A stretch of DNA of 64,000 nt from an uncultured delta proteobacterium (GCA_963753975.1 CAVWEH010000002.1:684919-748918); one strand, 5' to 3'. Counted from the first letter of the stretch, positions 10,766-38,334 are shown. Notes: a model not told the origin generated them from the sequence alone. Translations and numbers: made by a program.

Positions 10766-11854
10766 TTATTCTCGCCTCATGACATGTACAGCAGTGGCTT
10801 TGAAGGACACGACTACATTTGAATTTTCACGTATGCCCAGATCCTCGCAAGAAGGCGTGGTGATATAAGCAACGAGAGAAAAACCGCAGTCCAAAACGAG
10901 TTTATAAAAAAACCCTTGCCGGACAATTTTCCCAATTTTTGCGTCAAAGATATTACGCGCGCTTATTTTGCCCTGTGTATCTTTGGATATCGTAATATTT
11001 TCCGGCCGTAAACAACAGTGAACATTTTGTCCCGGAGCGAAATTGCCTACGGCTTCAATAATTTTTCCAGCTACGGAAATCTCCATCAGGCCTGCATTGC
11101 TGCTTTTGACAGTGCCTTCCAAAACCGATTCTGTTCCGACGAAGTTAGCTATAAATTCATCAGCCGGCTGATTAAATATTTCTGCAGTTGTTCCCGATTG
11201 CACGATTTTACCGCCGTTCATGAACGCAACATTCTGTGCCAAACGCAGTGTTTCTTCTCGGTCGTGCAGCGCCACCACGGCCGTTATTTTTGTTTCCTTT
11301 AAAATCCGCTGCAAATCGTCAATGATGGCTTCACGGGAAGGCGGATCAAGAGAGTTAAAGGGTTCATCCAATAAAATCAGTTGGGGCTGAAGGGCAAAAG
11401 CGCGCGCCAGTGATACCCTTCTGGCTTCACCTCCCGAAAGTGATTTCGCCGATCTTTTTTCCAGTTGCGCGATTCCAAAATAATCCAATGATTCGCCAAC
11501 ACGATTTTTGATCTCATAATTTTTTACTTTTCGAAATTTCAAACCAAGGGCAACATTTTCATAAACCGAACTACTAAGAAGTAAGGGCTCCTGAAAAACG
11601 ACGGCTGCGTTGCGGCGGAGAATCATGCGGTCAACACGCGAATTTATCGGCAATTCTTGGAAATAGAGCTGTCCCTGCCAAGGCTTCAACAAACCGGCCA
11701 TCGTTAAAAGCAGGCTGGACTTCCCGGCACCGTTGGGTCCGATCAAGACGAATATTTTCCCCCGTTCCACAGTGAGTTCGCTAATATTCAATACAGCTAC
11801 ACCGCCGCGCTGAACGATTAAATTTTTAACGGTAAGAATATTCTCAGATTTCAT
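10766..11854 (-). CDS. tupC: ABC transporter ATPase with C-terminal TOBE domain (tungstate/molybdate type)
   Basis: Walker A GPNGAGKSS, signature LSGGEARR, Walker B LILLDEP. The C-terminal ~120 aa is TOBE-like. 4-bp overlap with the permease gene. Confidence 0.8.
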   Translation of the reverse strand: MKSENILTVKNLIVQRGGVAVLNISELTVERGKIFVLIGPNGAGKSSLLLTMAGLLKPWQGQLYFQELPINSRVDRMILRRNAAVVFQEPLLLSSSVYENVALGLKFRKVKNYEIKNRVGESLDYFGIAQLEKRSAKSLSGGEARRVSLARAFALQPQLILLDEPFNSLDPPSREAIIDDLQRILKETKITAVVALHDREETLRLAQNVAFMNGGKIVQSGTTAEIFNQPADEFIANFVGTESVLEGTVKSSNAGLMEISVAGKIIEAVGNFAPGQNVHCCLRPENITISKDTQGKISARNIFDAKIGKIVRQGFFYKLVLDCGFSLVAYITTPSCEDLGIRENSNVVVSFKATAVHVMRRE

Positions 11855-15514: not shown

Positions 15515-16144
15515 ATGATCGCTGAAAAAAAAGTAAAACCGAGGGTAGAATCAATACTGAAAGCAGCCGGGGAAATATTTGCTGAACAAGGCTTTCGCAA
15601 AACTACCGTACGGGAAATATGTAAGCGCTCCCGGGTAAACTTAGCAGCAATAAACTATTATTTCGGCGACAAAGAAAGATTATATCTGGCCGTTTTAAAA
15701 TATTACCGTGAACTTGCTATACAAAAATACCCCCTTACTTTCAGCATCAATGAAACGGATACACCCAAAGATAAGCTCAGTAATTTTATTCATACTTTTA
15801 TCTATCGTTTTCTGGAAAAAGGAAAAACTTCATTATTTGGCAAACTTCTTGCCCGGGAATTTACCGAATCTACCGCGGCGTTAGATGTTTTAGTGGAAGA
15901 CTTCATCAAGCCAACGTTTATCAAATTATCCTCTATCGTCAGAGAAATTGTGGGCAATAAACCTCCTGACAAAATAATAGAACTTTGTGCTATGAGTATT
16001 ATTGGTCAATGTCTTTATTTCCGTAATGCCCGGCCTATTATTTTCCGGCTGCGGCATAAAGAAGGATATACTGACGAAGACATAAAAGAAATAGCCGAAC
16101 ACATAATAAATTTTTCACTAAAAGGGTTGCTTAACTATCAATAA
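15515..16144 (+). CDS. TetR/AcrR-family regulator upstream of the RND operon
   Basis: TetR HTH (FAEQGFRKTTVREICKRSRVNLAAINYYFGDKERLY). ATG at 15515 is preferred over the TTG at 15488. Confidence 0.85.
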   Translation: MIAEKKVKPRVESILKAAGEIFAEQGFRKTTVREICKRSRVNLAAINYYFGDKERLYLAVLKYYRELAIQKYPLTFSINETDTPKDKLSNFIHTFIYRFLEKGKTSLFGKLLAREFTESTAALDVLVEDFIKPTFIKLSSIVREIVGNKPPDKIIELCAMSIIGQCLYFRNARPIIFRLRHKEGYTDEDIKEIAEHIINFSLKGLLNYQ

Positions 16145-16315: not shown

Positions 16316-17594
16316 ATGAATCAACCATCAAAGCTGGAAACTCACACTGGACCTCATTTAACCAGAATTCAAAGATTCTTTCATTTTATCCGCCGCCACT
16401 GGATAATTATTATTGTATCCATTGTAATTATCATTGCGGGCAAAATATTCCTTGTGCCAAACATGGTGAAGTTTGGTACAGGTAAAAAATCTTTTGATCA
16501 GCCTCCACAGCCTGTAACGGCCTTAATGACAAATAAAGCTGATTTTGATGTATATCTGAAAGGGTTAGGTACCGTCATTCCCACAAACACCGTTACTGTC
16601 AAATCTCAGGTCAGTGGCCAGCTAATGAGCGTGCACTTTAAAGAAGGACAGCATGTTAATAAAGGTGACTTGATTGCAGAAATTGATCCACGCCCTTTCC
16701 AGGTTCAACTTATGCAGGCCGAAGGGCAGCTTGCCCGTGACGAAGCGTTTCTGAAAAACGCCGAGAGCTGATCTGGCGCTTTACAAACAGTTGCTTGCCC
16801 AGGATTCTATTGCCGCGCAACAGGTAACAACGCAGGAATCATTGGTGAAGCAGTACCGCGGTGTAATTGAAACAGACAAGGGTCAAATCGCCAATGCTAA
16901 ACTCCAGCTTACTTATGCCCGCGTTATCGCCCCGATTACCGGACGCGTCGGTTTGCGGCAAGTTGATCCCGGCAATATGGTTCAGGTTAACGATCCCAAC
17001 GGTATAGTGGTAATCACACAACTGCAACCGATCACAGTCGTATTTTCACTGCCTCAGGACAATTTGACGATTTTGATGAAACGCTGGAATGCCGGGACAA
17101 CCTTACCTGTCCAGGCCTATGATCAGGAAGGCAAGATATTACTGGCCAGCGGCAAACTGCTCGCAATTGACAATCAGATCGATACTACAACAGGAACAAT
17201 TAAACTGAAGGCGATATTTGACAATAAAGATAACAAACTTTTTCCCAACCAGTTTGTTAATGTTCGGCTGAAAGTGGATACTCTTCGTGATGCAACTGTA
17301 ATGTCCACTGCTGCAGTGCAGCGCGGCAGTATCGGTACTTTTGCTTATGTGGTCAAAGATGACAAAAGTGTAACTGTAAGGATGTTGAAACTAGGACCTA
17401 CTGAAGGCGATAATGTCGTCGTAATGGAAGGCCTGGTACCCGGAGAATTGGTGGTGACCGTCGGAGGTGATAAACTGCGTGAAGGCACCAAAGTAGAGAT
17501 TATGACGCCGAACAGTAAAGAAGCATCAGTGCGTACAGACAAAACAACCACAGCTCCCAAACAAAAAACGCGGCAGACTTCAGCACCAAAGTAA
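16316..17594 (+). CDS. mdtA: RND membrane-fusion protein (MdtA-like), one frameshift near 16765
   Basis: Track ORFs 16316..16771 and 16791..17594 join as ...[11 protein letters not shown]|[20 protein letters not shown]... The HlyD-type lipoyl and beta-barrel segments are recognisable. Confidence 0.75.
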
Positions 17595-17655
17595 ACTATG
17601 TCGGCTTTGATTCTCGTCTATATAATTACCGCACCTCAATAAGATAGGCAAATAT

Positions 17656-20600
17656 ATGAATCCTTCACGTCCTTTCATCTTGCGTCCCGTGGCTACATCA
17701 TTGTTCATGGCCGCGATTCTGCTTGCGGGCATTATCGCTTATCATGTACTGCCTATTTCCGCGCTGCCTCAGGTTGATTACCCGACTATTCAGGTTGTGA
17801 CCCTTTATCCCGGAGCAAGTCCGGACGTTGTTACTTCCTCCATTACTGCGCCACTGGAGCGCCAATTCGGCCAGATGCCGGGACTGAATCAGATGTCTTC
17901 GACAAGCTCAGGCGGAGCATCGGTAATTACGCTGCAATTCAGTCTCAGCCTGAACCTCGATGTTGCGGAGCAGGAAGTGCAGGCGGCAATCAATGCCGGC
18001 CACTAACTTTCTTCCCACAGATCTGCCGATGCCGCCGATCTACAGCAAAGTCAACCCGGCGGATGCACCGATTATGACTCTGGCGATAACATCCAAAACC
18101 TTGCCGTTGCCGAAAGTTCAGGATCTCATCGACACGCGTGTCGCCCAGAAAATATCGCAATTGCCGGGTGTCGGACTGGTCAGCATCAGCGGCGGACAAA
18201 GACCGGCGGTACGCATTCAGGCCAATCCCAAAGCACTGGCAGCCTATAATCTCACGCTGGAGGATTTGCGCACGACCATCGGCAATGCCAATGTCAACCA
18301 GGCCAAAGGCAGTTTTGACGGTCCGGAGCGCGCTTCCACAATCGACGCCAATGATCAGATCAAGTTGGCTGCAGAATATGAAAAAGTTATTGTTGCTTAC
18401 CGCAATGGCGCGCCGGTGCGCCTGACCGATGTAGCGGATGTCCGTGATGATGCTGAGAATGTCAGCCTGGCGGCCTGGCAAGATCAAACGCCGGCTGTTA
18501 TCGTGAATATTCAGCGTCAGCCGGGCGCCAATGTCATCGAGGTTGTCAATCGCATCAAGAATATAATTCCGCAATTGCGGTCATCACTGCCCGGTTCGGT
18601 TGACGTTATCATGCTGACCGACCGTACCACAACCATCCGGACATCAGTGAATGACGTTCAGTTTGAACTGATCCTGGCCGTTGCTCTCGTCGTTATGGTC
18701 ATTTTCCTTTTTCTGCGCAATCTATCGGCAACAATTATTCCGAGCATCGCCGTGCCGCTTTCGCTTATCGGAACATTCGGAGTCATGTACCTTTTCGGTT
18801 TCAGCATCAACAATCTGACTTTGATGGCCTTGACGATCTCGACCGGTTTTGTCGTGGATGACGCCATTGTTGTCATCGAAAATATCGCCCGTTATATCGA
18901 ACAGGGTTTGTCCCCAATGGAGGCCGCCCTCAAGGGTTCGGCGCAGATTGCCTTTACAATCATTTCGCTTACTTTTTCCCTGATCGCCGTTTTGATTCCT
19001 CTTCTTTTCATGGGAGATGTTGTGGGACGACTTTTCCGGGAATTTGCGATCACCCTGGCCGTCGCCATATTGATTTCGGCGGTTATTTCGCTGACGCTTA
19101 CACCGATGATGTGCTCCAAGCTGTTGCGGCATGTGCCGGAAGAAAAGCAAGGACGTTTTTATCACCAAAGCGGCTTGTTTTTTGAAAGGACAATTGCCCG
19201 CTACGGCAAGATGCTCACCTGGGTTCTTGATCATCAGAAAGCCACACTGCTGGTGGCCATTGCTACGCTTGGTGCTGACAATTCTTTTGTATATCTTCAT
19301 TCCCAAAGGGTTTCTTCCCCGTACAGGATACGGGCATGATTCTCGGCATATCGGAAGCACCGCAATCGATTTCTTTTTCCGCGATGGCCGAACGTCAGCA
19401 GGCGTTGGCTAAAGTGATTCTGCAGGACCCGGCCGTGGAAAGCCTGTCTTCCTTCATCGGCGTGGATGGAACCAATGTAACATTAAACAGCGGGCGCATG
19501 ATGATTAATCTGATACCGAAGAATAAACGCGATCTTGATGCTTCCGGCGTTATCCGCCGTTTACAGGCAAGACTTGCCGCAGCAGAAGGGATATCTCTTT
19601 ACATGCAGCCGGTGCAGGATCTGACGATTGAAGACAGGGTCAGCCGCACGCAGTATCAATTTACACTGGAGTGCGCCGATCCGGACGAACTGAGCCTTTG
19701 GACTCGCCGCCTTGTCGAGCGTATTTCTCACTCGCCATATCTTACCGATGTGGCCAGTGATTTACAGGATCAGGGATTGCAGGCTTATGTGGACATAGAC
19801 CGCAATGCGGCCGGCCGGCTCGGCATCACGACTGCTGCCATCGATAATATTCTTTATGACGCTTTCGGCCAGCGCCTTGTTTCCACGATATTCACGCAAT
19901 CAAACCAATACCGCGTTGTTCTGGAGGTAAAGCCTGATTATAAAAAAGGACCGGCAGCCCTGAATGATTTGTACATAACTTCGCAGTCCGGAACTCAGGT
20001 TCCTCTGGGGGCAATCGCGCGGATATCGGAAAAACCGACGCCGCTTGTCGTCAATCACCAGGGACAATTTCCCTGTGCCACAATTTCTTTTAATCTGGCG
20101 CCCGGAGCATCACTGGGAAATGCCGTCTCGGCTATCGAAAAAGCCGAGCGCGAAATAGGCATGCCGATCAGTGTCAAAACCGGTTTCCAGGGAACGGCTC
20201 TGGCTTTCCGGGCTTCGCTTACCGGCACGCTGTTCTTGATCCTGGCCGCCATCATCACGGTGTATATTGTCCTGGGCATTCTTTATGAAAGCTATATCCA
20301 TCCGATAACGATTCTATCCACTCTGCCTTCCGCCGGTGTCGGCGCCTTGCTGGCGCTGATGATTTCCGGAAATGATCTGGGAATTATCGGAATCATCGGC
20401 ATCATCCTGCTCATCGGCATCGTGAAGAAAAATGCCATTATGATGATTGACTTTGCCCTCGATGCCGAACGCAAAGAAGGCAAGACCGCCGCGGGAAGCA
20501 ATTTATCAGGCATCGCTTGCTGCGCTTCCGGCCGATTATGATGACGACCATGGCCGCCCTGCTGGGCGCACTGCCGTTGATGATCGGTACCGGAGTCGGA

Positions 20601-20756
20601 TCGGAGTTGCGCCATCCCCTGGGCATTACGATGGTGGGAGGGCTTATTTTGAGCCAGATTCTGACACTTTTTACAACACCGGTTATTTATCTGGCTTTTG
20701 ACAGCCTGAGCCGTCGAATCAGGGCGCGAAATTGGCCGTCATTCAGTAACCGCTGA
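17656..20756 (+). pseudogene. mdtB: RND inner-membrane pump (MdtB-like), about 5 frameshifts
   Basis: About 1033 codons spread over frames. Breaks near 17995, 19265, 19318, 20480 and 20515. Hallmarks include [26 protein letters not shown] and [20 protein letters not shown]. Confidence 0.8.
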
Positions 20757-20777
20757 TAAAGGCGATGGGACCGTATC

Positions 20778-23700
20778 ATGAACATTTCCACTCCTTTCAT
20801 TCACCGTCCTGTAGCGACGACCCTGATTACGCTGGGTATTGCTCTGGCCGGCCTGGTTGCGTTTAGCCTGCTGCCGGTGGCGTCACTGCCGCAGGTTGAC
20901 TTTCCCACCATATCCGTTTCAGCATCGCTTCCCGGAGCCAGCCCGGAAACAATGGCCGCCACGGTGGCCACGCCTCTGGAGCGGTCGCTGGGACGCATTG
21001 CCGGCATCACCGAGATGACCTCGACAAGTTCGCTGGGTTCGACCACGAATCACTCTGCAATTTGATCTGGACCGGGATATTGACGGGGCGGCGCGTGATG
21101 TGCAGGCGGCCATCAATGCAGCGCGCAGCCTTCTGCCTTCGGGATTACCCAGCAACCCGACTTATCGCAAAGTAAACCCGGCGGATGCCCCCATCCTCAT
21201 TTTAGCTCTGACCTCGGATACCATGACCCGCGGCCAGCTCTATGATGCGGCATCTACTATTCTGGCGCAGAAACTTTCTCAGATAAAAGGTGTCGGCCAG
21301 GTGAATGTCGGCGGCAGTTCGCTTCCGGCCGTGCGGGTGGAATTGAATCCGGCCTTGCTCAACCGCTACGGAATAAGTCCGGAACAGGTGCGCCTCTCTA
21401 TTGCCGCCTCCAATGCCAACCGTCCCAAAGGTTCCGTGGAAGCAGGCGATAAACACTGGCAGATATCATGCCAATGACCAGGCAAAAAAAGCAGCCGATT
21501 ATATTCCGCTGATTGTGTCTTATCGCAATGGCGCCGCTGTGCGTCTTTCGGATTTAGGCGAGGTGGTCGATTCGGTACAGGATTTGCGCAATGCCGGGTT
21601 ATTCAACGGCAAACCGTCCGTTTTGCTGATCATCATCCAAGCAGCCCGGCGCCAATGTCATCGAAACGGTCGATCGCGTCAAGGATATTTTACCGCAGTT
21701 GCAGGCCTCCATACCGGCGGCGATCAATTTACAGATTGCTTCGGATCGCACTCCGACCATCCGCGCCTCATTGAGCGAAGTCGAACGCACCTTATTGATC
21801 TCCATCGCGCTGGTGATTCTGGTTGTATTTTTGTTTTTGCGCAATATTTATTCCACACTTATTCCCAGCATTGCCGTGCCTGTTTCACTGATCGGCACCT
21901 TCGGCGTCATGTATCTGGCCGGTTATACGCTGGATAATCTTTCCCTGATGGCGCTCACCGTTGCCACCGGTTTTGTCGTTGATGACGCTATTGTTGTTCT
22001 GGAAAATATCTCCCGCCATATCGAGGCGGGGCTGACTCCTTTTCAGGCGGCGCTGCTTGGGAGCAAAAGAAGTAGGCTTTACCGTGCTTTCGATGAGCCT
22101 CTCCCTGATTGCCGTATTTATTCCTATTTTATTGATGGGAGGAGTTGTAGGCAGGCTTTTCCGCGAGTTTGCCGTGACGCTTTCCGCGGCCATTATAGTT
22201 TCTCTTCTTGTATCTCTGACCACGACGCCGATGATGTGTGCCCGTCTGTTGCGATCGAAAGAAGAACTGAAAACAGGCTGGTTCTATCGAAAAAGTGAGC
22301 AGATATTTGAGGCGGTTCTCGGCTTTTACCGGCGATCACTGAGTTGGGCTCTGCGGCATGGCCGGCTCATGATGTCGATACTGTTTGTTGTTATCTGCCT
22401 GAATGTTTTTCTTTATATCATCATTCCCAAGGGATTCTTTCCTCAGCAGGATACCGGAGCGCTTGTCGGCACAATTCAGGCTGACCAGAATATTTCTTTT
22501 CAGGCCATGCAACGCAAGCTGATCAGCATCATGGATATCATTCGTTCCGATCCGGCTGTTGAACAGCATATGCCGGTTTTACCGGAGGCGGGCAGACGCA
22601 ATTCCGGTTTCATGTATATTTCTCTGAAGCCGATTCGCGAGCGCAAGGTTTCCTCCGATCAGGTCATGGCCAGGCTGCGCCCCAAGCTGGCGCGCGAAGC
22701 GGGGGCAAGACTTTTTCTGCAATCGGTGCAGGATATCCGCGTCGGCGGCCGGGCGGCCGGAGCCACCTATCAATACACTTTGCAGGCCGAAGATCTTACC
22801 GAATTACGGTTATGGGAAAAACGCCTCAAGGATGCTTTCAACGAACTTCCCGAATTGACGGATGTAAATACGGATGAGCAGGATAGAGGATTGCAGACTT
22901 CCGTTACTTTTGACCGCGACACGGCCTCGCGTATGGGAATCACTCCGGCGCTTATCGATGCGACATTAAATGATTACTTCGGCCAGCGTCAGGTATCCAC
23001 TATTTACAATCCTCTTAATCAATACCGTGTCATCATGGAAGCTTCGCCTCCCAACTGGCAAAGTCCGGAATCCCTCAAAGATGTATACGTGATTATTCCC
23101 GCCAATGCGCAACTTCCGAATGGAGCGCAGGTGCCCCTTTTGTCCTTTGCCAACTATGGCTTGACCAATACACCGCTTGCCGTCAACCATCAGGGACAAT
23201 TTGCCGCATCCACGATTTCTTTTAATCTTCCCCTGGGAGTGTCGCTTTCTCAGGCAACAGTGGCGATTCAGAAAACAATGGATCGTCTCGGCGTTCCCGG
23301 TTCCATCCGGGGAAGCTTTCAGGGAACGGCCCGAACATTTCAGGAATCATTACAAAGCCAGCCCTGGTTAATTCTGGCGGCACTCATTGCCATATACATT
23401 GTGCTGGGCATTCTCTATGAAAGTTATGTGCATCCGGTCACGATTCTATCCACACTGCCCTCCGCCGGTGTCGGGGCGTTGCTGGCCTTAATGTTATTCA
23501 ATACGGAGTTCAGCATCATGGCTTTGATCGGTGTTATTCTGCTCATCGGCATCGTCAAGAAAAATGCCATTTTGATGATTGACTTTGCTCTGGATAAGGA
23601 ACGAAAAGAAGGGAAAAGCCCTGAAGAATCAATATTTGAAGCCTGCCTGATGCGTTTCCGGCCGATCATGATGACGACGATGGCGGCGATTTTCGGCGCC

Positions 23701-23910
23701 ATGCCTTTGATTTTGCTCACCGGAGAAGGTTCCGAATTACGCAGGCCTTTGGGAATTTCTATTGTGGGCGGTCTGATTGTCAGCCAGATTCTGACACTCT
23801 ATACAACGCCTGTCGTTTATTTATACCTTGATCGTTTCCGGTTGTTTTGTTTAAGGATATTACGACGGAAAAGTGACCGGTTGCCTAAGCCGGCGTTGGA
23901 GAAAACTTAA
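20778..23910 (+). pseudogene. mdtC: RND inner-membrane pump (MdtC-like), about 6 frameshifts
   Basis: About 1044 codons. Breaks near 21050, 21460, 21640 and 22060, plus a compensating pair near 22570/22598 (AGFTGGGQT is readable only in another frame). N-terminus [16 protein letters not shown]. Confidence 0.8.
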
Positions 23911-23921
23911 AAAGGATTATT

Positions 23922-25349
23922 ATGAAAAAAATATCAATATTTAAAATGCTTCTTGTTATTTTATTGATGATGTCCGGCTGTTCTGTCGGGCCGGATTATA
24001 AACGTCCCGATGCGCCGGTACCATCATCTTTCAAGGAACTGAAAGGCTGGCGTGAAGCCCTGCCCCGCGATCAGGAAATTAGAACAAACTGGTGGGAAGC
24101 CTTCGATGATCCCATCCTTAACTCGCTTGCCGAGCAGGTTAATGTATCGAACCAGTCGATAGCGCTTGCGGAATCTCAATATCGTCAGGCCCAGGCGCTG
24201 GTGCAACTGGCGCGGGCCAGTTACTTCCCTACTGTCAATGCGGGGGCAGCCTATACCCGCTCGCTGCCAGCCGGGGATGGGGAACCTATAATCCGGTAAA
24301 CCAGCATCAGGTTTCTCTCAATGCCTCCTGGGAAGTGGATTTGTGGGGAAAAGTGCGACGGCAGGTGGAATCAAGTACGGCAACTGCCGAAGCATCTTTT
24401 GCCGATTTACAGGCTATGCGTTTATCGATGCAAGCGGAACTCGCCCTGAATTATTTTCAGCTGCGGACTCTTGGATGCCCAAAAGAAAAATCTTGAGGAA
24501 GCTGTTGCAGCTTACGGAAAAGCTCTGGAGCTTACGCAAAACCGCTATAATGCCGGTGTCGCGGCCAAGGCTGATGTTGCCGCAGCCCAAACCCAACTTA
24601 AATCCACTCAAGCTCAGGCTATCGATGTCGGCGTGCAGCGGGCACAACTGGAGCATGCCATCGCCATCTTAATCGGCAAGCCGCCGGCCGATTTTTCTCT
24701 GCCGCCTGTGACATTTGCTGCGCCGCAAATCAAAATTCCTGTGGCGCATTCCTTCCGATCTGCTGGAACGCAGGCCGGATATTGCCTCGGCGGAGCGCAA
24801 GATGGCTGCGGCCAATGCCCAGATCGGAGTCGCCAAAGCGGCATATTATCCATCCATTACTCTTTCCGGGTCATTGGGATACGCAAAGCGCTGAACTGGC
24901 CAACCTGTTTACATCACCAAGCTTTTTCTGGGCTTTAGGACCGATGGCTCTGGCCGACAACTTTATTTGACGGCGGGGCGCGCAAAGCACAGACTGAGCA
25001 GGCAATGGCCGCATATGATGGAACAGTAGCCTTTTACCGGCAAACCGTACTTACGGGATTTCAGGATGTTGAAGACAATCTGGCCGCCCTGCGCATACTT
25101 GATGAGGAAGCGCAAATGCAGGAACAGGCCGTAAATTCCGCTCACGAATCGGTCACTCTGACAACCAACCAGTATAAGGCCGGAATTGTCAGTTACCTGA
25201 ATGTAGTTACCGCCCAAACTATTGCCCTGACCAATGAAAGAACGGCCATTAGCATCAGCGGTCAGCGCCTGAATGCAGGCGTCCTGCTCGTCAAAGCTCT
25301 TGGCGGCGGATGGAACGCGGCAGAAGCTCATGGTGCCGACCAAAAATAA
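23922..25349 (+). pseudogene. NodT/OprM-family outer-membrane efflux lipoprotein, about 5 frameshifts
   Basis: Lipobox LMMSGC. Stitched pieces include [68 protein letters not shown] and FDGGARKAQ...ALGGGW. Breaks near 24295, 24470, 24745, 24890 and 24965. Confidence 0.75.
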
Positions 25350-25450
25350 AACTTCTGAAATCTGGTGGCGCCTGGAAATATGAATAACAAGAAATAGGAT
25401 TTATGTATTATAAGTCTTTTCCCCAATCATCATGATGACCAATAAAAAAA

Positions 25451-26032
25451 ATGCATGGTCTTCTTTTAACTATAACAAAATATTCTTACATGGGAATATT
25501 TACCGCTCTCGGCCTGGGTATATTGGGAATACCTATTCCCGATGAAACCTTAACAGCTTTTGCTGGATTCTTAGCTTTTCAGGGTAAATTGAATTTCTTT
25601 TTTATTCTGGCTGTAGCTTTTGCTGGAACATCATGCGGCATCACGATTAGTTACTTCCTCGGAAGATATTGCACAAATTTTATTTCAAGAAAATATCCGG
25701 ATAAATTTCCGGTCAATTCCAACCACTTGCTGGAGGTAAAAAAATTCTATTTAAGATTTGGGAAATATGCCCTGTTGCTGGGCTATTTCATCCCGGGCGT
25801 ACGACATCTTACCGCAATTTTCGCCGGAACAACCTTCCTACCCTATAGGCAATTTGCTCTTTTTGCGTACGTGGGTGCCTTTTTATGGACGGTGACATTT
25901 TTGCTTCTTGGATATTTTTTAGGTCACGAATGGTATCTTGTCGTTCATTTTTCGAACCGCATTTTCATACCTTTAATACTCTTGTCGGTTTTGATTTTCT
26001 TTTTAATCGCGTATCTGAAAGAAAAAACATAA
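25451..26032 (+). CDS. DedA-family membrane protein
   Basis: 193 aa. DedA/SNARE-associated motifs (PIPDETLTAFAGFLA, GYFIPGVRHLTAIFAG). Confidence 0.85.
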   Translation: MHGLLLTITKYSYMGIFTALGLGILGIPIPDETLTAFAGFLAFQGKLNFFFILAVAFAGTSCGITISYFLGRYCTNFISRKYPDKFPVNSNHLLEVKKFYLRFGKYALLLGYFIPGVRHLTAIFAGTTFLPYRQFALFAYVGAFLWTVTFLLLGYFLGHEWYLVVHFSNRIFIPLILLSVLIFFLIAYLKEKT

Positions 26033-26050
26033 AGGATTACGAACCAAAGA

Positions 26051-27301
26051 ATGGATTCAAATGTTGGCGGAATAATTTTTGATAACCTTAAGAATTTTAA
26101 ATTCATATTCCGCACTTTACGATACCGGAATTATCGTCTTTTTTTCATCGGCCAATTCATTTCTCTCATCGGCACGTGGATGCAGCAAATTGCTGTAAGC
26201 TGGTTAGTTTATAAAATGACGCACTCCGTGTTCCTTTTAGGGTTGGTCGGTTTCGTCAGCCAATTTCCGATATTTGCTATTTCTCCTTTTGCCGGTGTTT
26301 GGTCCGATCGCTTCAACCGGCATCGGATGCTTATTATGACTCAAACATTATCTATGATCCAGGCAATGGCCCTAGCGATCCTTGTCTTATCCGGCGTCAT
26401 TTCCGTGTGGCAAATAATCTTCTTGAGCTTGTTCATCGGTTGTGTAAACGCGATAGATATGCCCACCAGACAATCATTTGTCATCCACATGGTTGATGAG
26501 CGCAGGGATCTGAGTAATGCCATTGCCCTAAACTCCGCCATGTTTAACGCAAGCAGGCTTTTGGGACCATTCATCGCCGGCGTTTTGATTGCAATCGTCG
26601 GTGAAGGAATTTGTTTTCTCATCAACGGTTTAAGTTATATTGCTGTAATTTTGGCTCTATTAGCCATGAATGTCAGCAATATGCAATTTGGATTTAAGAA
26701 ATCCAGTGTTATCGAAGAGCTAAAAGATGGGTTTACTTATGCCTTTGGTGATCCAAAAATAAAATCTATCCTAATGCTTGTCGCCCTTACCAGTATAATG
26801 GGAGTCCCTTTTATCGTCCTCATGCCCGCTTTCGCTAAAGACATATTACACGGGGGACCTCATACACTGGGATTTTTAATGTCCGCACTGGGTGGAGGAG
26901 CATTGATGGGAGCTTTTTATCTTGCTGCACGAACTGATATGAAAGGTCTCCGAAAAATAATAAATCTGGCTGCCCTGCTGTTCGGCATTGGTCTCATCGG
27001 ATTTTCTTTATCAAAAAATTTATGGATTTCCCTATTAATGATACTCATTGCCGGTTTCGGCATGATGGTGCAGGTTGCTTCCAGTAACACCTGGTTACAA
27101 ACAAATGTAGACGATGATAAACGCGGCCGGATGATGAGCTTTTACGTTGTCTCTTTTACGGGCATGGCACCTTTTGGCTCTTTGCTGGCAGGAAGCATGG
27201 CTGGCGCTATAGGAGTCTCCAATACAATTTTTATCGGTGGAGTCGTCTGCATTCTTGGCGCTATTTTTTTCCTGAAATTGTTTCATCGCTCCGAATATTA
27301 A
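26051..27301 (+). CDS. MFS transporter (MFS_3/EntS-like subfamily)
   Basis: 416 aa, 12 predicted TM segments. N-terminus FRTLRYRNYRLFFIGQFISLIGTWMQQIAVSWLV is typical of this subfamily. Confidence 0.85.
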   Translation: MDSNVGGIIFDNLKNFKFIFRTLRYRNYRLFFIGQFISLIGTWMQQIAVSWLVYKMTHSVFLLGLVGFVSQFPIFAISPFAGVWSDRFNRHRMLIMTQTLSMIQAMALAILVLSGVISVWQIIFLSLFIGCVNAIDMPTRQSFVIHMVDERRDLSNAIALNSAMFNASRLLGPFIAGVLIAIVGEGICFLINGLSYIAVILALLAMNVSNMQFGFKKSSVIEELKDGFTYAFGDPKIKSILMLVALTSIMGVPFIVLMPAFAKDILHGGPHTLGFLMSALGGGALMGAFYLAARTDMKGLRKIINLAALLFGIGLIGFSLSKNLWISLLMILIAGFGMMVQVASSNTWLQTNVDDDKRGRMMSFYVVSFTGMAPFGSLLAGSMAGAIGVSNTIFIGGVVCILGAIFFLKLFHRSEY

Positions 27302-27444
27302 ATAAATCGTTATTTTTCTACAAATTGTTTATTTGTGTATTTTGTAAAAAAAGCTTCGCAATAGATTAGCGTAGAACAAAGAAAGACATTAATATAAAAA
27401 ATTTATGTGAACAAACATCACCTTAAAAGTGTAATATAATTATG

Positions 27445-27594: not shown

Positions 27595-27810
27595 ATGAGC
27601 ACGGAAATAAAGGCACCCATGACCGGGAAAATCGCCAGCATCGTTGTTCACGTGGGTGATCAAGTCAATGTAGATGACGAAGTCGTCATCATGGATGCCA
27701 TGAAAATGGAAATACCCGTCTATGCGCCTGTTCAGGGAACAGTCAAGGAAATAAAAATCAAAGAAGGCGATTCTGTAAAAACAGATCAAGTTCTAATGAT
27801 CATTGGTTAA
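27595..27810 (+). CDS. Standalone 71-aa biotinyl/lipoyl-attachment domain protein (BCCP-like)
   Basis: Biotinylation motif MDAMKMEIPV. RBS AAAGGAG. No carboxylase or decarboxylase subunit is adjacent. Confidence 0.8.
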   Translation: MSTEIKAPMTGKIASIVVHVGDQVNVDDEVVIMDAMKMEIPVYAPVQGTVKEIKIKEGDSVKTDQVLMIIG

Positions 27811-27819
27811 AATAGACAC

Positions 27820-28500
27820 CTATTTGGCGGAAGCTTTTTTAGTAGGCAAGGTGTCAGCCCATTCACTCACGGTTAAAACATCCGCCTGACGGGGAAACAC
27901 CTTTTCAACCAACACGCGATGTACTTCCGGATCAGCATCTAAACACGCATCGGAAAGAACGACAAGTCCGTAATCCTTATCCGCAGCTTCCCGCAGAGTT
28001 GAAAGGACAACGCCGCTTGTTGCAATACCAGTTAGAATCAGCTTGTCGATCCCACGGGAGCGGAGAAGAACCTCGAGATCACTACCGGCAAACGCGCTCA
28101 CGCGTAATTTCGTCACGACAGGTTCGTCCGGAAGCGGCGCTACCGAAGAATGAATTTGTGTCGAAACATCGGAAATGGTCATGCCTCCCAGTTTTGAGAC
28201 GGCTGAAAACGTTTTGTTCTTTGCGCTTAATTCCGGATAGCCGTCACGGAATGCGACACGAACAAAAATAACCGGAATTCCCGCATGACGGGCAGCGCTC
28301 ACGGCATGTTGAAATGGAATCATGACTTCTGGTTTTTCAGCAAAATGCTGAACAATTCCGTTTTGAACGTCCATCACTAAGAGCGCTGAGTGATTCGCTT
28401 GCATCATATCAGCATTCTTTACTGTAATGACAGGATTGGCCATACAAGAGGTAAGAAGTAACAGGCAGATAAATCCCAAAATCTTCTTAGTGCTTTTCAT
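27820..28500 (-). CDS. Isochorismatase-family cysteine hydrolase, predicted lipoprotein
   Basis: Lipobox LLLTSC. ALLVMDVQNG ... LILTGIATSGVVLST ... SDAC (catalytic Cys context). Confidence 0.85.
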   Translation of the reverse strand: MKSTKKILGFICLLLLTSCMANPVITVKNADMMQANHSALLVMDVQNGIVQHFAEKPEVMIPFQHAVSAARHAGIPVIFVRVAFRDGYPELSAKNKTFSAVSKLGGMTISDVSTQIHSSVAPLPDEPVVTKLRVSAFAGSDLEVLLRSRGIDKLILTGIATSGVVLSTLREAADKDYGLVVLSDACLDADPEVHRVLVEKVFPRQADVLTVSEWADTLPTKKASAK

Positions 28501-28519
28501 AATTGCCTCCGTAAAAACA

Positions 28520-28550
28520 AAACCCCGATCTTTTTTTAGAAACGGGGTTT
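28520..28550 (-). terminator. Hairpin plus U-tract just upstream of the isochorismatase RBS
   Basis: Minus-strand AAACCCCG-N15-CGGGGTTT followed by TGTTTTT. Could terminate the upstream gene or act as a leader structure. Confidence 0.45.
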
Positions 28551-28832
28551 CGGTAATCAGTTCATGCTTCCCTCGTGTAAGGTTGAATGGTTCAGTAAAT
28601 TTATTCTCCGACTTTACATAGTTTTTAAATTATCACTATTCACATTAGAAATCTACTCTGAAAAAAATCAAGGAAATACTTCTTACAAGGAAGAAGTTGA
28701 TTGTTTGTTTCGCCTACAAGTCAGCAATTATGGTGATTAAAATATTTTGAGGATTTGCATTTGAATGTTTGATCAATATACGGATCGGTGAGAACTAGTT
28801 TATCTACGCTTCGTTGCACCTCTTGGTTGGGC

Positions 28833-29408
28833 TCAGTTTTCGTTCCCTAGAACCGCTCGTTCTGCGCTGATCCACAAAGACGTGTCTTCCTGCGCCAGAA
28901 TCTTAATTATTAGGCTTCTCACGTCTTTCATGCTCTTCCTGTTTGTCAATGTTTTTGCCAGTTGCCACTGTCGGGATGCCTCCTGATGAGCGCCAATTAC
29001 CTCAAGGGAGATGGCTAGTTTTCCTCTATCGATCCCTTCAGCAATGAGTTTCGCTTTTGTCAAGTCCCCGTAAGAAGATGCTAATTCTTTCAAAGCCAAC
29101 ACTTGGAATGGAAAAAAGAATGACGAATCAATATCCTTTGTATGTCCATCATTTTGAAATATCCTGAATCCATCATTGGCTTCTGCATCGACCACGTTCC
29201 ATCTGTGGAATGCTGCCCTTATAATATCATTGTGGCGTGCTGCCCGTCCTGCAAGGAACTCTTGTTCCGTTTTTAGATCAATTCGTATAATCTCTTTATA
29301 AGTTGGACGCACATACATATGTAAAAGATTCATGAGGAGTGCTCCTATAGCCACGCCACCGATGAATATGCCACCCATCTTGAGTACTTTAATCGTGAGT
29401 TGTTTCAT
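28833..29408 (-). CDS. Hypothetical N-terminally membrane-anchored protein
   Basis: 191-aa ORF with one TM segment (GGIFIGGVAIGALLMNLL). No recognisable family. Slightly higher GC than its neighbours. Confidence 0.5.
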   Translation of the reverse strand: MKQLTIKVLKMGGIFIGGVAIGALLMNLLHMYVRPTYKEIIRIDLKTEQEFLAGRAARHNDIIRAAFHRWNVVDAEANDGFRIFQNDGHTKDIDSSFFFPFQVLALKELASSYGDLTKAKLIAEGIDRGKLAISLEVIGAHQEASRQWQLAKTLTNRKSMKDVRSLIIKILAQEDTSLWISAERAVLGNEN

Positions 29409-29681
29409 AATTCATTTTAGCCCCAACAATGTTTATATGTATCTTTAAAAACCTAGACGCCGTATATTTGCTGTATATCAATACGAACTATAAAATTGTC
29501 GGTCTTGTATGTCAAATAAATATTGATTACTAATTGAAAGGAAGTATGTAAGCCAAAATTGCTGGATGCTTTGTTTCAGGAAGAAGTAGAGCCTACGAAG
29601 CTGCATCTTTTGATTAGAGCGATAATGAATTTTCAAGGGCAGATTAACAAATCCAAGGGATAAGTGGCCGGAACAAGTACT

Positions 29682-30014
29682 CTATATTCCCAAATTAGAG
29701 AGCGTTGTGCAGAAGGTATTGATAATCCCCACTAGCCTCGGATGAGATATTTCGAAGCCCTGAACCGATGAGGCCAAACCTTCAATCGACAAATTGAGGA
29801 GCGTCGGATTCTTTTCGCTTCGTGTGGCTTCGCGGGCTGATAATTCGGCAAATCCTACGATGCTTTCCGCATGCTCATAATGAGTTTTGGAAAGGTCGGC
29901 AATTTCTGTCCTCAAGGTCATCAACAGGATCAATAACTCAGCTTTGTCACTCTCTTTGACCGCTGCGCTCTGCTTCAGCCTCTCTTCAATCTTGTCAAGA
30001 TGATCCTGAATCAT
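29682..30014 (-). CDS. Small helical protein, DUF4404-like
   Basis: 110 aa. The C-terminal HPRLVGIINTFCTTLSNLGI and the overall pattern resemble DUF4404. This is from memory and unverified. Confidence 0.5.
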   Translation of the reverse strand: MIQDHLDKIEERLKQSAAVKESDKAELLILLMTLRTEIADLSKTHYEHAESIVGFAELSAREATRSEKNPTLLNLSIEGLASSVQGFEISHPRLVGIINTFCTTLSNLGI

Positions 30015-30380
30015 TTCCGTCCACCATTATTCGCCTTCATTCCAAATGTTCCCCGAACCTCTCTGCCACATGGTTAAAAGCATACGATGGGTGGTTTTGC
30101 ATGTCAATGAAAAACTAACCGCAAAATATAAGGTGTGATGCCGGTGTTTATCTTCGGGTGTGAATTGTGTTTATTACCAATTGAAGTCCTGTATTTTAAT
30201 CGAGGCTGACGATTTGCTACTTTCAGAAAGAACTGTTTGCTGAAAACATCTGCTTATCCACGCCCCCGATTCCATCAAAAGGTTATTCATTATTTATTGT
30301 ATGCAATTATTTTGGCAATTATTTTGTCAAACATAATAAATAAATATAGCAGAAAGGGGAAAAACAAACCATAACCAGAC

Positions 30381-30416
30381 AAAAAAGGAAGGGACAGGTT
30401 TTTGCCTGTCCCTTCC
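30381..30416 (-). terminator. Rho-independent terminator of the K/A-rich gene
   Basis: Minus-strand GGAAGGGACAGG-loop-CCTGTCCCTTCC followed by TTTTTT. Confidence 0.65.
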
Positions 30417-30443
30417 TTCGGGCAAATAAAGTTCTTAATAAAC

Positions 30444-30659
30444 TTATTTTGCAGCTGGAGCTGCGGCAGGGGCTTCGGCGGCCTTTTCGGCTTTCTTCGC
30501 CTTCTTTACTTTCTTTACTTTCTTTACTTTCTTCACTGCTTTTTTCTCCGCCATTTTTGCGGGGGCGGCTGTTCCAGCGGCCATCGGTTTTTCAGCTGCC
30601 ATAGCTGTGGTGCAAAATGCGAAAACCAATGCAACAACAAACAATACTAAACGTTTCAT
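30444..30659 (-). CDS. 71-aa secreted Lys/Ala/Pro-rich polycationic protein
   Basis: Signal peptide MKRLVLFVVALVFAFCTTAMA. The mature part is AEKPMAAGTAAPAKMAEKKAVKKVKKVKKVKKAKKAEKAAEAPAAAPAAK. RBS AAGGAGG. Confidence 0.6.
   Translation of the reverse strand: MKRLVLFVVALVFAFCTTAMAAEKPMAAGTAAPAKMAEKKAVKKVKKVKKVKKAKKAEKAAEAPAAAPAAK
30495..30539 (-). repeat. 9-bp tandem repeat inside the K/A-rich CDS
   Basis: ctttacttt occurs 3 times perfectly (30504..30530) with degenerate flanking copies. It encodes (KKV)n. Confidence 0.8.
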
Positions 30660-30742
30660 CTTAAATCCTCCTTCTTAAATTATGTTTTATTTAATACCAC
30701 CCTTAAAAATTAAGGGACCTCAAATTAATCCGGATAAATACC

Positions 30743-31135
30743 TCAATACCCCGATTTGTTCGCCGACGTGGATTTCTCCCCGACCGGTTTAACTTCTTTT
30801 TTCTTCGAGTTGACTTTTGCCACTCTGGCAGCGACTAATTTACCGCCTTGATTAATATAGGCTATTTTTACAGTATCGTTTACAGTAATATTTTCAGTTG
30901 GGTTCTCCAAGGCAAATTGCATTACTTCTGCATTGCCTCGTACTGTGCGTTCAATCTTAAGTGAGCAATCCGATATGTCAATGACTTTTCCCCTTGCATT
31001 CATCTTTGCCGATTTAACGACATTTGTTTTTGCCGGATCAACTTTGGTTGCATCAGTTGCGGACTTGTCGGCAGCAAACGCCAGAGCTGACAAAAGAAAA
31101 GCAACGCTAACTATATACACTAAAGTTTTCTTCAT
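30743..31135 (-). CDS. Hypothetical secreted protein
   Basis: Signal peptide MKKTLVYIVSVAFLLSALAFA. No recognised family. The start is more likely at 31135 than at the track start 31153. Confidence 0.55.
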   Translation of the reverse strand: MKKTLVYIVSVAFLLSALAFAADKSATDATKVDPAKTNVVKSAKMNARGKVIDISDCSLKIERTVRGNAEVMQFALENPTENITVNDTVKIAYINQGGKLVAARVAKVNSKKKEVKPVGEKSTSANKSGY

Positions 31136-31819
31136 AGCTCTCAAGCTCCGCAATATTCCTATTATTCTAATATAGCAACTAATGTACCATTCAAATCATT
31201 TATCATAAATAAGTGTATATAATTGAAATACTTAGATTAATTATTTTCAAAAAGATAGTGGAAGCTACTTTTAAAGAAATTAGTGGGGAATAAGTCCCCA
31301 GATGTTGAGGATTTAATCAACAGTCAAAGAACTGAAAAGAGCGTTTTAATATCATTTTTAAAGCAAAGATGATATTTACGCGTCAAGGAGGAACGGCTGG
31401 ATGGAGCGATCATTACTTCATTCAAGGTTCACAGTCTTGAAGAAATTATGAACGTTCTGAAGGTCTGTTTGCCTCGTATCAAGATCATCCAATCTGAAGA
31501 GCTTAAAATATCTTCCTAGAAAATATGAAGACATGCATCTCTTGGCAGAAAGAATCCTGATCATAAGATTTCAAGGTGATCGTCATTGATTTCCAATCGA
31601 AAGGATGTATACTTGCCAAAATCACTCGATGATTGACTTCAGGAGGAAGTGCTTGCTGACTACACCTACGACTGTTCATCGTTGGCTGCAATGATAAATC
31701 TTAAATTACAAATTTTTATTTAGTAGAAAAAAACATCAAAAAAAATCAAAAGGGGTAACTATAGGGTAGCAGAGAGAAAAATAAAGGGCTAGGCGATTTG
31801 TCTAACCCCTTGATATATT

Positions 31820-31895
31820 TGGTGAGCCCTGTCGGGATCGAACCGACAACCTACTGATTAAGAGTCAGTTGCTCTACCAGCTGAGCTAAGGGCCC
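31820..31895 (-). tRNA. tRNA-Lys (CTT), CCA encoded
   Basis: Cloverleaf by eye: GGGCCCT-TA-GCTC-AGCTGGTA-GAGC-A-ACTGA-CTCTTAA-TCAGT-AGGTT-GTCGG-TTCGATC-CCGAC-AGGGCTC-ACCA. Confidence 0.9.
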
Positions 31896-32024
31896 TAAGG
31901 ACTGTTGAAAAAAGTCCATGCTGCCTGCGTTACCCTCAATATTCGTCGTTGCGACGTACATTTAGTACGACTCACTCCTCATATTTTCGGGTGCCTTGCA
32001 TCTGGCTTTTTTGAACAGTCCTTA
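31896..32024 (-). other. Long imperfect hairpin filling the tRNA-Arg/tRNA-Lys spacer
   Basis: 19-nt arms at 31896..31914 and 32006..32024 pair 18/19. They enclose about 91 nt with further partial pairing and small internal hairpins (cgtcg-ttg-cgacg, gtac-attta-gtac). The 3' arm abuts tRNA-Lys +1. Confidence 0.5.
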
Positions 32025-32061
32025 TTAAATTGGATTAAAAAACAACCCAATATATTCTTTC

Positions 32062-32138
32062 TGGTACGCCCGGTAGGATTCGAACCTACGACCAACAGAT
32101 TCGAAGTCTGCGACTCTATCCAGCTGAGCTACGGGCGC
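32062..32138 (-). tRNA. tRNA-Arg (TCG), CCA encoded
   Basis: GCGCCCG-TA-GCTC-AGCTGGATA-GAGT-C-GCAGA-CTTCGAA-TCTGT-TGGTC-GTAGG-TTCGAAT-CCTAC-CGGGCGT-ACCA. Confidence 0.9.
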
Positions 32139-32158
32139 TTATTTTCCAATCCAAAATA

Positions 32159-32236
32159 TGGGGTGAGTGAAGGGACTTGAACCCTCGGCCTCCGGGGCCA
32201 CAACCCGGCACTCTAACCAATTGAGCTACACCCACC
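32159..32236 (-). tRNA. tRNA-His (GTG) with encoded G-1, CCA encoded
   Basis: G-GTGGGTG...CCGGG-TTGTGGC-CCCGG...GAGGG-TTCAAGT-CCCTT-CACTCAC-C-CCA. The extra 5' G opposite C73 is the His identity element. Confidence 0.9.
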
Positions 32237-32246
32237 ATTTTCGCCT

Positions 32247-32323
<77 letters not shown>

Positions 32324-32458
32324 AAATATTAAATCCTGTGCACTAAAAAAGAGTTAGCCTAATATCCTCTCTGCTATTTTTTGTCAAGATCAAATGCTGA
32401 AGGAATCATGAATTATCTGACATAACCGGCAATACCATCAAACCTGTATCCGTTTCTT

Positions 32459-34155
32459 CTAACATTTCCTCCTTTCGGATCCGTTGTATAAAAATAACTG
32501 CCCGCTTGCCGAATTAAACCAACGATAAAGTTCTCTGGTATTGGTCATTCGGGATGTGGCAATGTTGCCTAATGATCCTTCAAACACATACCCCTGCAGA
32601 TTTTTCCCGCCTCCGGCTAAGATCATAATGATAAAAATGATCATTTTTTTGTGGATTATACCAGCGATAAAAACTCGTTGTCCCCGGCGTTTCCGGGGCA
32701 AATAGCCGGAAAGCAATTCCGTCTTTAGTATAACCATTTCTGATTGATCGTTTCCGTTTCTGCCTGAGGATTGGCTGTAAATAGATAATCCAATCCTTTA
32801 GAATACCGAAAAATATCAATAGCCTGTGGTACACTATCGGGTATCACTTCTACAAATACTTCGACCATTCCGTCCCCACCATTGGAATTAAATATGATAT
32901 TATCCCCATAATACCCCGGCATCATCTGCCCGGCATTTAAAGTAACAGTAAGATAATTAGTTTGACTGGTTATCGTTCCGGAATTAGGCACTATTGTTAT
33001 TCTGCCGGCAGGTATACGAATCACACTTTTTCCCAATATCTTTACGCCCTCGAATACTAAACGGTTGTCATTACTGGCAATTGTAAGAACATGAGGACCG
33101 TCAACCAGCCCTTCTGCAACCGGCAATTCCCCTTTTTTCTCTTTTAGATCGTTAACCCATCTATGATTACTAATTAATTGTTCATCAAGATATATAATTA
33201 AATTACTATTGTCCGGATAAGTTACCAGATAAAGGATTATTCCCGTTCCGTTAAAACGGAGCTTAATGGAGCTTTCGCCTTCCGTACTCGAGGGGTATCC
33301 GTCATTTACAGTCCATCTGCCCATCAAGTCCATTACTTCTTTTAGATGCCCGGGCACAGTATAAATCCCCCCGTCCGGAATTTCATCATTGACAAAAGAT
33401 ATATACCGGCCTTTTTTGAAGTTTGCCGGGTTTTCACCACGTTTAGGTTTTTGTAGCGTTACCGACCAAGTTAACATTTCCTTACCCTTATTGGTCACCT
33501 TTATCTTTTTGGAAACGGTTTTCCCCGGCGAAATACTGCCCATATCCATTCTCAAGGGATTTAAATTAATCAAAGCAGATTCCTGGGTAGAAACTATGGA
33601 AAAAGTGACAAAGATCGTTCTTAGCCCGCCTGTAGAATTAATTTTAATTGCTTCTTTATACGTTCCAGCAGACAAATTCTTACTGCAGATAAGTCTCCCA
33701 TTTTCGGCTTCTAGTTTCATTTCTACGTTGTAAAGTGCAATATCTGACCTATTATTATCGTTCAACAAAGATTCACCCGGCAGTATCCGGATTTCAATGT
33801 GTAAATAATCTACTTTTTTTTCCACTACGCCTGTTAACGGTGCACCTTCCGACGCGATCCAGCCTTCCGGCCCGTTTGTTGACCAGTTTAAAATGCCGGC
33901 TCCCATATTCTTTAATGTAAATGATCCGGCACCGGCTTCATCCGGAATTATTTTTCCCAGATTAAATTCCCGCGGTGTTATTGACAAAACCGGGCGCAAA
34001 AAATCTTCAGTATTATTTCCAGGATTTTTGCCGTTGAGCTCATTTTGTTTAATAACAGATTGATTTCCGCCGGCATTATCTTGGGCAGTTACGGTAAGGG
34101 GGAAAATTGTCAGCGCAATAACAATGAAAATAAAATATTTTTTTATCGAAATCAT
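32459..34155 (-). CDS. Large secreted protein with C-terminal DUF5648-like repeats; 3' end broken by two frameshifts
   Basis: The 476-aa track ORF (signal peptide, beta-rich repeats) continues through shifts near 32735 and 32600 into ...GYTKDGIAFRLFAPETPGTTSFYRWYNPQKNDHFYHYD... and ...GYVFEGSLGNIATSRMTNTRELYRWFNSASGQLFLY... This is the [FY]R[WF][YF]N..DHFY...GY..EG repeat. Confidence 0.65.
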
Positions 34156-34436
34156 AAATACCCCTCAAAAATGGCTGATTGACTACTAACTCAAAGATGA
34201 AATTTAAGCAACTATTTTGAAGCTCAAAGTAGCCAGATCGGGACTGTCATTAATGTTTAGGGTGAAGTCCGGTTGCAATTAGTTTATTTATCTTTCTATT
34301 ATCATTATATTAAAATAGGTATCTTGTTCAAAATGCTTGACACGACTTACAAACAAGATGTAACTTGCCAGCAATTTTTCATGATAATATTTCGAAAGCG
34401 TAGAGTTTTGCTAATTATGTTTCCGATAAAGCAATT

Positions 34437-38214: not shown

Positions 38215-38332
38215 CTCCAAAGCAAGTTTTGGAGAAATTTCACAGCAATCTGCTGTTATCATACCTTCCGCTTTGCGGGATAGTTCAACTTAACAATTCC
38301 AATACGCTTCGCTTTTGTAATTGGAGTTTCAC
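38215..38332 (+). repeat. Third copy of the same intergenic repeat family between topA and trmFO
   Basis: Hairpin CTCCAAA-gcaag-TTTGGAG (38215..38234). TCCGCTTTGCGGGA (38267..38280). CAATTCCAA...CGCTTCGCTTTTGTAATTGGAGTTTCAC (38305..38332), whose GGAG here serves as the trmFO RBS. Confidence 0.7.
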
Positions 38333-38334
38333 AT

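Follow-up and report, generated by a model that had tools for sequence, protein, structure and literature searches.

The stretch of DNA that was analysed, in the following called the window, comprises 64,000 nucleotides (nt), and all coordinates refer to the whole of it. Positions 16316–25349 on the plus strand are occupied by an efflux operon of four genes. These encode a periplasmic adaptor (MFP), two RND permeases in tandem (RND1 and RND2) and an outer-membrane factor (OMF) of the NodT family. In the map of open reading frames (ORFs) each of the four genes is split into overlapping fragments on the same strand. The nature of the frameshifts that cause this fragmentation is the subject of the present analysis.

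The longest fragment (617 amino acids) is 88–94% identical to RND permeases of metagenome-assembled genomes from Smithella, Smithellaceae and Syntrophaceae and of many metagenome contigs. The contigs encoding these proteins (L001, L002 and L084–L094) are referred to as the relatives. Window and relatives share the order of genes, which runs from molybdate-type ABC genes and an HTH/PBP regulator through TetR, MFP, RND, RND and OMF to an MFS transporter, and the DNA of the window is 86–92% identical to that of the relatives. The Mux architecture, i.e. an MFP, two tandem RND permeases and an OMF of the NodT family, is common to the window and all relatives. In every relative recovered, the four genes are intact, with the exception of the OMF gene of L002, which is split in two. 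Their products comprise 416–425 (MFP), 1039–1041 (first RND permease), 1041 (second RND permease) and 472–477 (OMF) amino acids. Sliding identities between the window and each relative, calculated as a test for a mosaic structure, place the relatives at about equal distance across the operon.

A six-way MAFFT alignment of the window with five related loci defines the indels that are private to the window. There are 19 frameshifting events of 1 bp, namely 18 private insertions and one deletion, of which one falls in the MFP gene, six in RND1, seven in RND2 and five in the OMF gene (Table 1). Deletion of the 18 additional bases and restoration of one G yield ORFs of 425, 1039, 1041 and 474 amino acids, in agreement with the gene lengths of the relatives, and none of them contains an internal stop. 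The three insertions at 22562, 22571 and 22595 together add 3 nt, so that the reading frame recovers behind them; at 22571, T and G are found side by side. An earlier inspection that was made without alignments (the sequence-only reading) had counted about 17 frameshifts. It located 17 of the 19, overlooked the insertion at 20726 and took the triple in RND2 for a pair. Its observation that in-frame stops are absent is borne out by the corrected genes, and its argument that the excellent protein sequence and the lack of stops speak against long-term decay is correct.

The corrected proteins can be assigned to known families. The MFP of 425 residues reaches 435.6 bits with NF008589, the MdtA/MuxA equivalog model (cut-off 391), and RND1 reaches 1708.5 bits with NF007798, the MdtB/MuxB equivalog model (cut-off 1584). 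The corrected RND1 protein is 94–95% identical to those of the relatives. The start of RND2 overlaps the stop codon of RND1 (ATGA). The best match of RND2 is still MdtC, but its score of 1602.4 bits is below the cut-off of the MdtC equivalog model NF007905 (1774 bits), and the only model it passes is that of the subfamily, NF033617 (RND_permease_2; 1308 bits, cut-off 1250). RND2 is classified here as MdtC/MuxC-like and not as a strict MdtC equivalog. The OMF scores 476.7 bits with the NodT model TIGR01845 (cut-off 210). The preceding regulator belongs to the TetR type, and PF00440 and PF09209 occur at the equivalent place in the relatives. Its best NCBIfam match, CecR, is weak and under the curated cut-off, and the protein is 93% identical to that of L001. 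An Rfam scan of the window found six tRNAs only and no match inside the operon. Judged by its sequence, the region is an ordinary, conserved operon of the MuxABC-OpmB/MdtABC type in a Smithella-like (Smithellaceae) genome, and it appears functional. Drug export by a heteromultimeric pump with two permeases is predicted from its family membership.

Table 1. Genes of the operon and its surroundings, with the 1-bp events that interrupt them.
Feature	Position	Strand	Remarks
TetR/CecR-like regulator gene	15515–16144	+	intact ORF, GC 0.37; alternative TTG start at 15488
MFP (periplasmic adaptor), MdtA/MuxA family	16316–17594	+	425 aa after deletion of the extra base 16766
+1 A	16766	+	MFP; relatives G or A at adjacent column
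RND1 permease, MdtB/MuxB family	17656–20781	+	1039 aa after deletion of six extra bases
+1 C	17996	+	RND1; from alignment
+1 T	19269	+	RND1; relatives C or T at adjacent column
+1 G (GG to GGG)	19308	+	RND1; from alignment
+1 A	20485	+	RND1; relatives G or A at adjacent column
+1 C	20514	+	RND1; from alignment
+1 G	20726	+	RND1, near 3' end; relatives C, G or T at adjacent column
RND2 permease, MdtC/MuxC-like	20778–23910	+	1041 aa after deletion of seven extra bases
+1 A	21045	+	RND2; relatives AGG or CGG, window A and C in tandem
+1 C	21467	+	RND2; relatives ATG or CTG, window C+A
+1 C	21634	+	RND2; from alignment
+1 G	22059	+	RND2; relatives C or G at adjacent column
three +1 bases (22562 A, 22571 T, 22595 G)	22562–22595	+	RND2; all at sites polymorphic in relatives
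OMF lipoprotein, NodT family	23922–25349	+	474 aa after deletion of four extra bases and restoration of one G
missing G in a G-run	24274–24275	+	OMF; only 1-bp deletion
+1 C	24468	+	OMF; from alignment
+1 G	24746	+	OMF; relatives C or G at adjacent column, window C+G
+1 A	24885	+	OMF; from alignment
+1 A	24957	+	OMF; relatives G or A at adjacent column
DUF5648/BACON-domain gene	32300–34164	-	private +1 at 32499, 32618, 32742; 582 codons after correction, relatives 573–578 aa
trmFO (GIDA family)	38215–39659	+	+1 at 38476, 38486; 457 codons after their deletion
KpsF/KdsD-like SIS+CBS gene	43726–44722	+	+1 at 44036, private vs L095, L096, L100; 334 codons after correction
further +1 insertions near gene ends (probable, six)	39886, 42521, 42545, 42716, 44814, 45667		in comparison with relatives
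further +1 insertions in spacers	32343, 34406, 40829, 43712, 46398, 46449, 46544		in comparison with relatives

The inserted bases are closely connected with the sequence variation among the relatives. At 12 of the 18 sites the additional base is identical to the alternative allele which the relatives carry at the adjacent column of the alignment, and it is placed beside the window's own allele. When insertions were placed at random on the same alignment, 2.2 sites on average had this tandem-allele signature. The maximum in 20,000 simulations was 10, and none reached 12.

The immediate sequence context of the insertions, on the other hand, is inconspicuous. Runs of three or more identical bases account for only three of the 18 insertions, and around 37 insertion sites there is neither a motif nor a positional base preference, nor a bias towards homopolymers or towards a particular inserted base. 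These observations argue against an error that depends on composition or motif, i.e. one provoked by GC-rich sequence, homopolymers or a methylation motif. Such an error would be in line with the fact that the operon combines the highest GC content of any long stretch of the window with its highest indel density, and with the position of the sole deletion (24274) within a G-run. However, the same insertions are found in AT-rich genes and spacers, whereas the acyl-CoA dehydrogenase gene with 49% GC and modB with 48% GC are intact. Furthermore, the operon of L001 is equally GC-rich and has no coding frameshift, while modC of L001 (45% GC) has nine. An origin of the indels in composition or motif, which the sequence-only reading had proposed as one of three explanations, is thus very unlikely and finds little support in the context of the sites, in the AT-rich genes that are hit and in the intact gene with 49% GC.

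The corrected genes are under strong purifying selection, also on the branch that leads to the window, and bear no mark of relaxed selection. Their ratios of nonsynonymous to synonymous divergence (dN/dS) are in the range of 0.06–0.19, like those of intact flanking genes. Among the substitutions private to the window, 157 are synonymous and 45 nonsynonymous. The resulting ratio of 0.29 falls among the values of the intact relatives and is a long way from the nonsynonymous excess of about 3:1 that is expected of neutral sequence. With commonly assumed ratios of indels to substitutions, 19 neutral indels should bring more than 100 extra nonsynonymous changes. In addition, gene decay in bacteria is usually deletion-biased and gives rise to longer indels as well. 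A mixed spectrum of deletions, varied lengths and stops is not seen in the operon, where 18 insertions are opposed to one deletion and all events measure exactly 1 bp. If the rest of the window is included, the coding frameshifts amount to 30 insertions versus one deletion.

For these reasons a real and very recent inactivation, i.e. a population with a dead efflux operon carrying 19 frameshifts, is hardly credible. In its favor, the given sequence does contain the indels, and under many conditions a bacterium can do without an efflux operon; yet there is neither an in-frame stop nor a large deletion. Moreover, the inserted bases copy alleles of the relatives, the relatives keep the operon intact, and trmFO and kpsF, which are genes of the housekeeping type, are broken by insertions of the same kind. 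It is conceivable that real +1 insertions arose at polymorphic sites of the operon and of several other genes in a natural Smithella population, for example by error-prone recombination or repair where divergent alleles meet, and that the inactivation is too recent for relaxation to be visible; this variant has just as little probability.

Programmed frameshifting and transcriptional slippage were set aside. The 19 sites have no slippery or homopolymeric context, and in the relatives each of these proteins is read from a single frame.

Insertions of the same type are not confined to the operon (Table 1). The operon has 2.1 frameshifting events per kb, compared with 0.22–0.44 per kb in the 27.2 kb of flanks that have a counterpart in relatives, where 6 definite and up to 12 coding frameshifts were counted (binomial p = 2e-5). 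The strong contrast described in the sequence-only reading (about 1.9 versus about 0.2 per kb) therefore stands. The remainder of the window is less clean than it had assumed, as trmFO, the kpsF-like gene and the DUF5648 gene are broken, whereas topA, fadB and the genes of the acyl-CoA dehydrogenase and the histidine kinase have full-length domain matches and are intact as it had stated. The further insertions within 38.3–43.4 kb are based on the single reference L095, and their direction (gain or loss) is not polarisable.

The events are strongly clustered and are separated by long clean stretches, e.g. at 46.6–53 kb. This distribution bears on random residual long-read errors that result from low local coverage without any mixture of strains. 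Insertions of +1 in several parts of the contig, beyond the operon, would be compatible with such errors, as would the six operon sites that lack the tandem-allele signature. Random errors, however, would not fall on polymorphic sites in 12 of 18 cases, with 2.2 expected, and both the pronounced clustering and the near-total bias towards insertions would be left without explanation. Low coverage as the sole cause is therefore unlikely, although less so than the explanations discussed above.

The type of assembly appears to be relevant. In the coding sequences of the operon, private frameshifting indels are limited to the 18 insertions and the G-run deletion of the window and to two +1 insertions in the OMF gene of L002; L001, L084, L091 and L093 have none. 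L001 and L002 come from ENA and bear names in the style of Flye ('contig_N'), and L084, L091 and L093 are JGI contigs. Elsewhere, nine +1 bases of its own fragment the modC/TOBE gene of L001 (L001:345–1014), which is intact at the corresponding place in the window (10766–11854) and in the JGI contigs. On the assumption that short reads underlie the JGI contigs and long reads the ENA 'contig_N' contigs, we infer that L001, L002 and the window are long-read assemblies, and a long-read assembly is the probable source of the window. Flye merges related strains into one consensus (PMC8302730), and a published pipeline of that kind combines metaFlye with one round of Medaka (PMC12313526). Polishers are reported to mis-correct heterozygous stretches frequently and may introduce frameshifts in doing so (PMC8092372). 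The indels of the window resemble errors of mixed-strain long-read assemblies in that they are single-base and private to one assembly, concentrate where the relatives differ from one another and, once removed, leave restored genes. They differ in being almost exclusively insertions outside homopolymers, whereas the usual residual error of nanopore sequences is an indel in homopolymer length (PMC9262707).

Most likely, with a probability of roughly 75%, the 19 frameshifts are consensus errors of a mixed-haplotype metagenome assembly that affect an ordinary operon, and not the result of gene decay. An artefact is indicated by five independent lines of evidence, namely the spectrum of events, the tandem alleles, the selection on the corrected genes, the distribution among assemblies and the recurrence of the errors elsewhere in the window. 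A mixture of haplotypes is favored because 12 of the 18 additional bases copy alleles of relatives beside the window's own allele. Reads from at least two co-occurring haplotypes would have been piled onto one contig. At some of the single-nucleotide differences the consensus would then have retained both alleles in tandem, by which one base was gained. Mixed reads are the putative cause of the insertions. The proposal of the sequence-only reading that the stretch is low-coverage or chimeric is the best of its three explanations as far as the mixture of haplotypes is concerned, and noise from low coverage alone is unlikely.

The particular density of errors in the operon can be related to its conservation. 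Compared with L084 (5573–14556), which represents another Smithella species, the operon is 87.5% identical at the DNA level and the flanks are 75–77% identical. Synonymous divergence (dS) between the two is 0.38–0.52 in the operon versus 1.3–2.3 in the flanks. Since sequence differences between Smithella species are far fewer in the operon than in its flanks, the operon would recruit more foreign reads. Where several Smithella lineages live together, noisy long reads of relatives would map to the operon, not to the flanks, and give a mixed pile-up there. The operon is probably the most affected part of the window for this reason.

The low dS of the operon between two Smithella species is also an observation in its own right. 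It suggests exchange between species or an unusual constraint.

Several observations weigh against an assembly from mixed haplotypes. Six of the 18 insertions lack the tandem-allele signature with respect to the five relatives at hand. For a corrected OMF segment of 210 amino acids, which spans four of the sites, the best match is 95% identical, and no intact copy above 95% is present in the protein collection. Furthermore, the second error-rich stretch of the window (38.4–46.6 kb) shows no particular conservation between species. Recruitment of reads across species can therefore not account for every cluster, and microdiversity within the species or a dip in coverage may have acted at 38.4–46.6 kb. 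In favor of the interpretation, an independent assembly agrees with the window in the flank, as the Logan contig L083 (2.2 kb, 99.6% identical) aligns without gaps to positions 25196–27418. It ends 150 bp into the OMF gene and thus covers none of the insertion sites.

The composition of the operon differs from that of its surroundings. GC content amounts to 0.511 in 16316–25349 and to 0.410 outside this region, with an average of 42% for the whole window. Windows of 1 kb have a mean GC of 0.411 outside the operon (standard deviation 0.036, maximum 0.519) and of 0.517 inside. Along the locus the values are 0.37 for TetR, 0.45 for MFP, 0.52 for RND1, 0.52 for RND2, 0.53 for OMF and 0.43 for MFS. 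GC at third codon positions amounts to 0.52–0.58 in the operon compared with 0.33–0.45 in neighbouring genes, which is an atypical composition. The impression that the efflux genes are richer in GC than the remaining window, next to an AT-rich TetR gene, is thereby confirmed.

The same enrichment is observed in L001, L002, L084, L091 and L093, for example in L001 with 0.47–0.53 in the operon and 0.36–0.45 in the flanks. Since the same locus is intact and GC-enriched in the Smithella-type relatives, the excess of GC is real but is an ancestral trait of the whole lineage and not the sign of a recent acquisition by this genome. Features of a recent island are missing as well. The operon shows no presence/absence variation among the relatives, all of which hold it between the HTH/PBP regulator and the MFS gene, and no integrase or transposase adjoins it. 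The sequence-only reading had also considered a recently inactivated operon of horizontal origin. This idea is not supported in view of the conserved and GC-enriched locus of the relatives, the purifying selection and a spectrum of events close to insertion-only.

A wider search with RND1 covered a collection of species-representative genomes, and the following figures apply to the matches listed. The homologues listed are distant (63–77% identity), and none of those listed is from Smithella. Among them are proteobacterial loci from Burkholderiales and Ralstonia with the same order of four genes and a GC content of 62–66%. Protein identities to these loci are 77–79% for RND1, 73–74% for RND2 and 55–61% for MFP and OMF. 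The best outside loci among the matches listed are thus proteobacterial and rich in GC, which fits an old transfer in which an ancestor most likely acquired the operon from a GC-rich proteobacterial donor.

At face value, annotation of the region would give four pseudogenes and suggest either that an efflux system was lost or that a horizontally acquired island is decaying; neither view is supported. The tandem-allele signature offers a diagnostic that works without reads. Clustered insertions that are all +1 and outside homopolymers, and whose extra base equals the adjacent allele of relatives, point to a mixed-haplotype consensus. Genes with this signature should be corrected and not annotated as pseudogenes. 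Biologically the case is modest and unsurprising: a pump of the proteobacterial MuxABC-OpmB-like type is kept at one locus across Smithellaceae.

Some further features of the window are recorded here. The OMF and MFS genes are separated by a gene of the DedA/VTT family (25451–26032, plus strand), for which UptA is the best match in NCBIfam, with a score under the cut-off. This gene is found in the window, L002 and L083 and is absent from L001, L091 and L093. The species of the L084 type has an ORF of 130 amino acids and a second OMF gene at this spot instead. The region 27800–32400 is not syntenic with the relatives and contains short ORFs only, one of them with a DUF4404 domain. It ends at a cluster of tRNA genes (Lys-Arg-His-Arg, 31820–32323, minus strand). 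In L001, a phage-type integrase adjoins the match to the tRNA-Lys gene, and the region may be a hot spot of integration. On the minus strand, 56048–58009 and 58134–60224 are tandem paralogues, each with an N-terminus similar to PMT_2 glycosyltransferases and TPR repeats. A third gene of the PMT family is present at 60509–61693 on the plus strand.

The operon is a further member of a known family, to which the frameshifts add nothing new. It is best compared with MuxABC-OpmB of Pseudomonas aeruginosa and with MdtABC of Escherichia coli (mdtABCD-baeSR). With MuxABC-OpmB it shares the order MFP, RND, RND, OMF in one operon. MFP and RND1 of the window pass the MdtA/MuxA and MdtB/MuxB equivalog models and the OMF is of the NodT family. 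The comparisons made here cover the family models and the loci of Ralstonia and Burkholderiales, and the resemblance to the P. aeruginosa system itself is a presumed one. In contrast to MuxABC-OpmB, the window operon belongs to a Smithella-like bacterium of the Syntrophales and not to a proteobacterium, and it is adjoined by the TetR/CecR-like gene, its putative regulator.

With MdtABC the operon has in common a tandem of MdtB-type and MdtC-type RND permeases together with an MdtA adaptor. MdtB and MdtC of E. coli act as a heteromultimer. RND2 of the window differs in staying under the MdtC equivalog cut-off (1602 versus 1774 bits). E. coli MdtABC uses TolC as outer-membrane partner, whereas the window operon has an OMF gene of its own. 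Neither mdtD nor baeSR follows downstream in the window, where the DedA-family gene and the MFS transporter are found instead. As the OMF lies inside the operon, the architecture appears closer to MuxABC-OpmB than to mdtABCD of E. coli.

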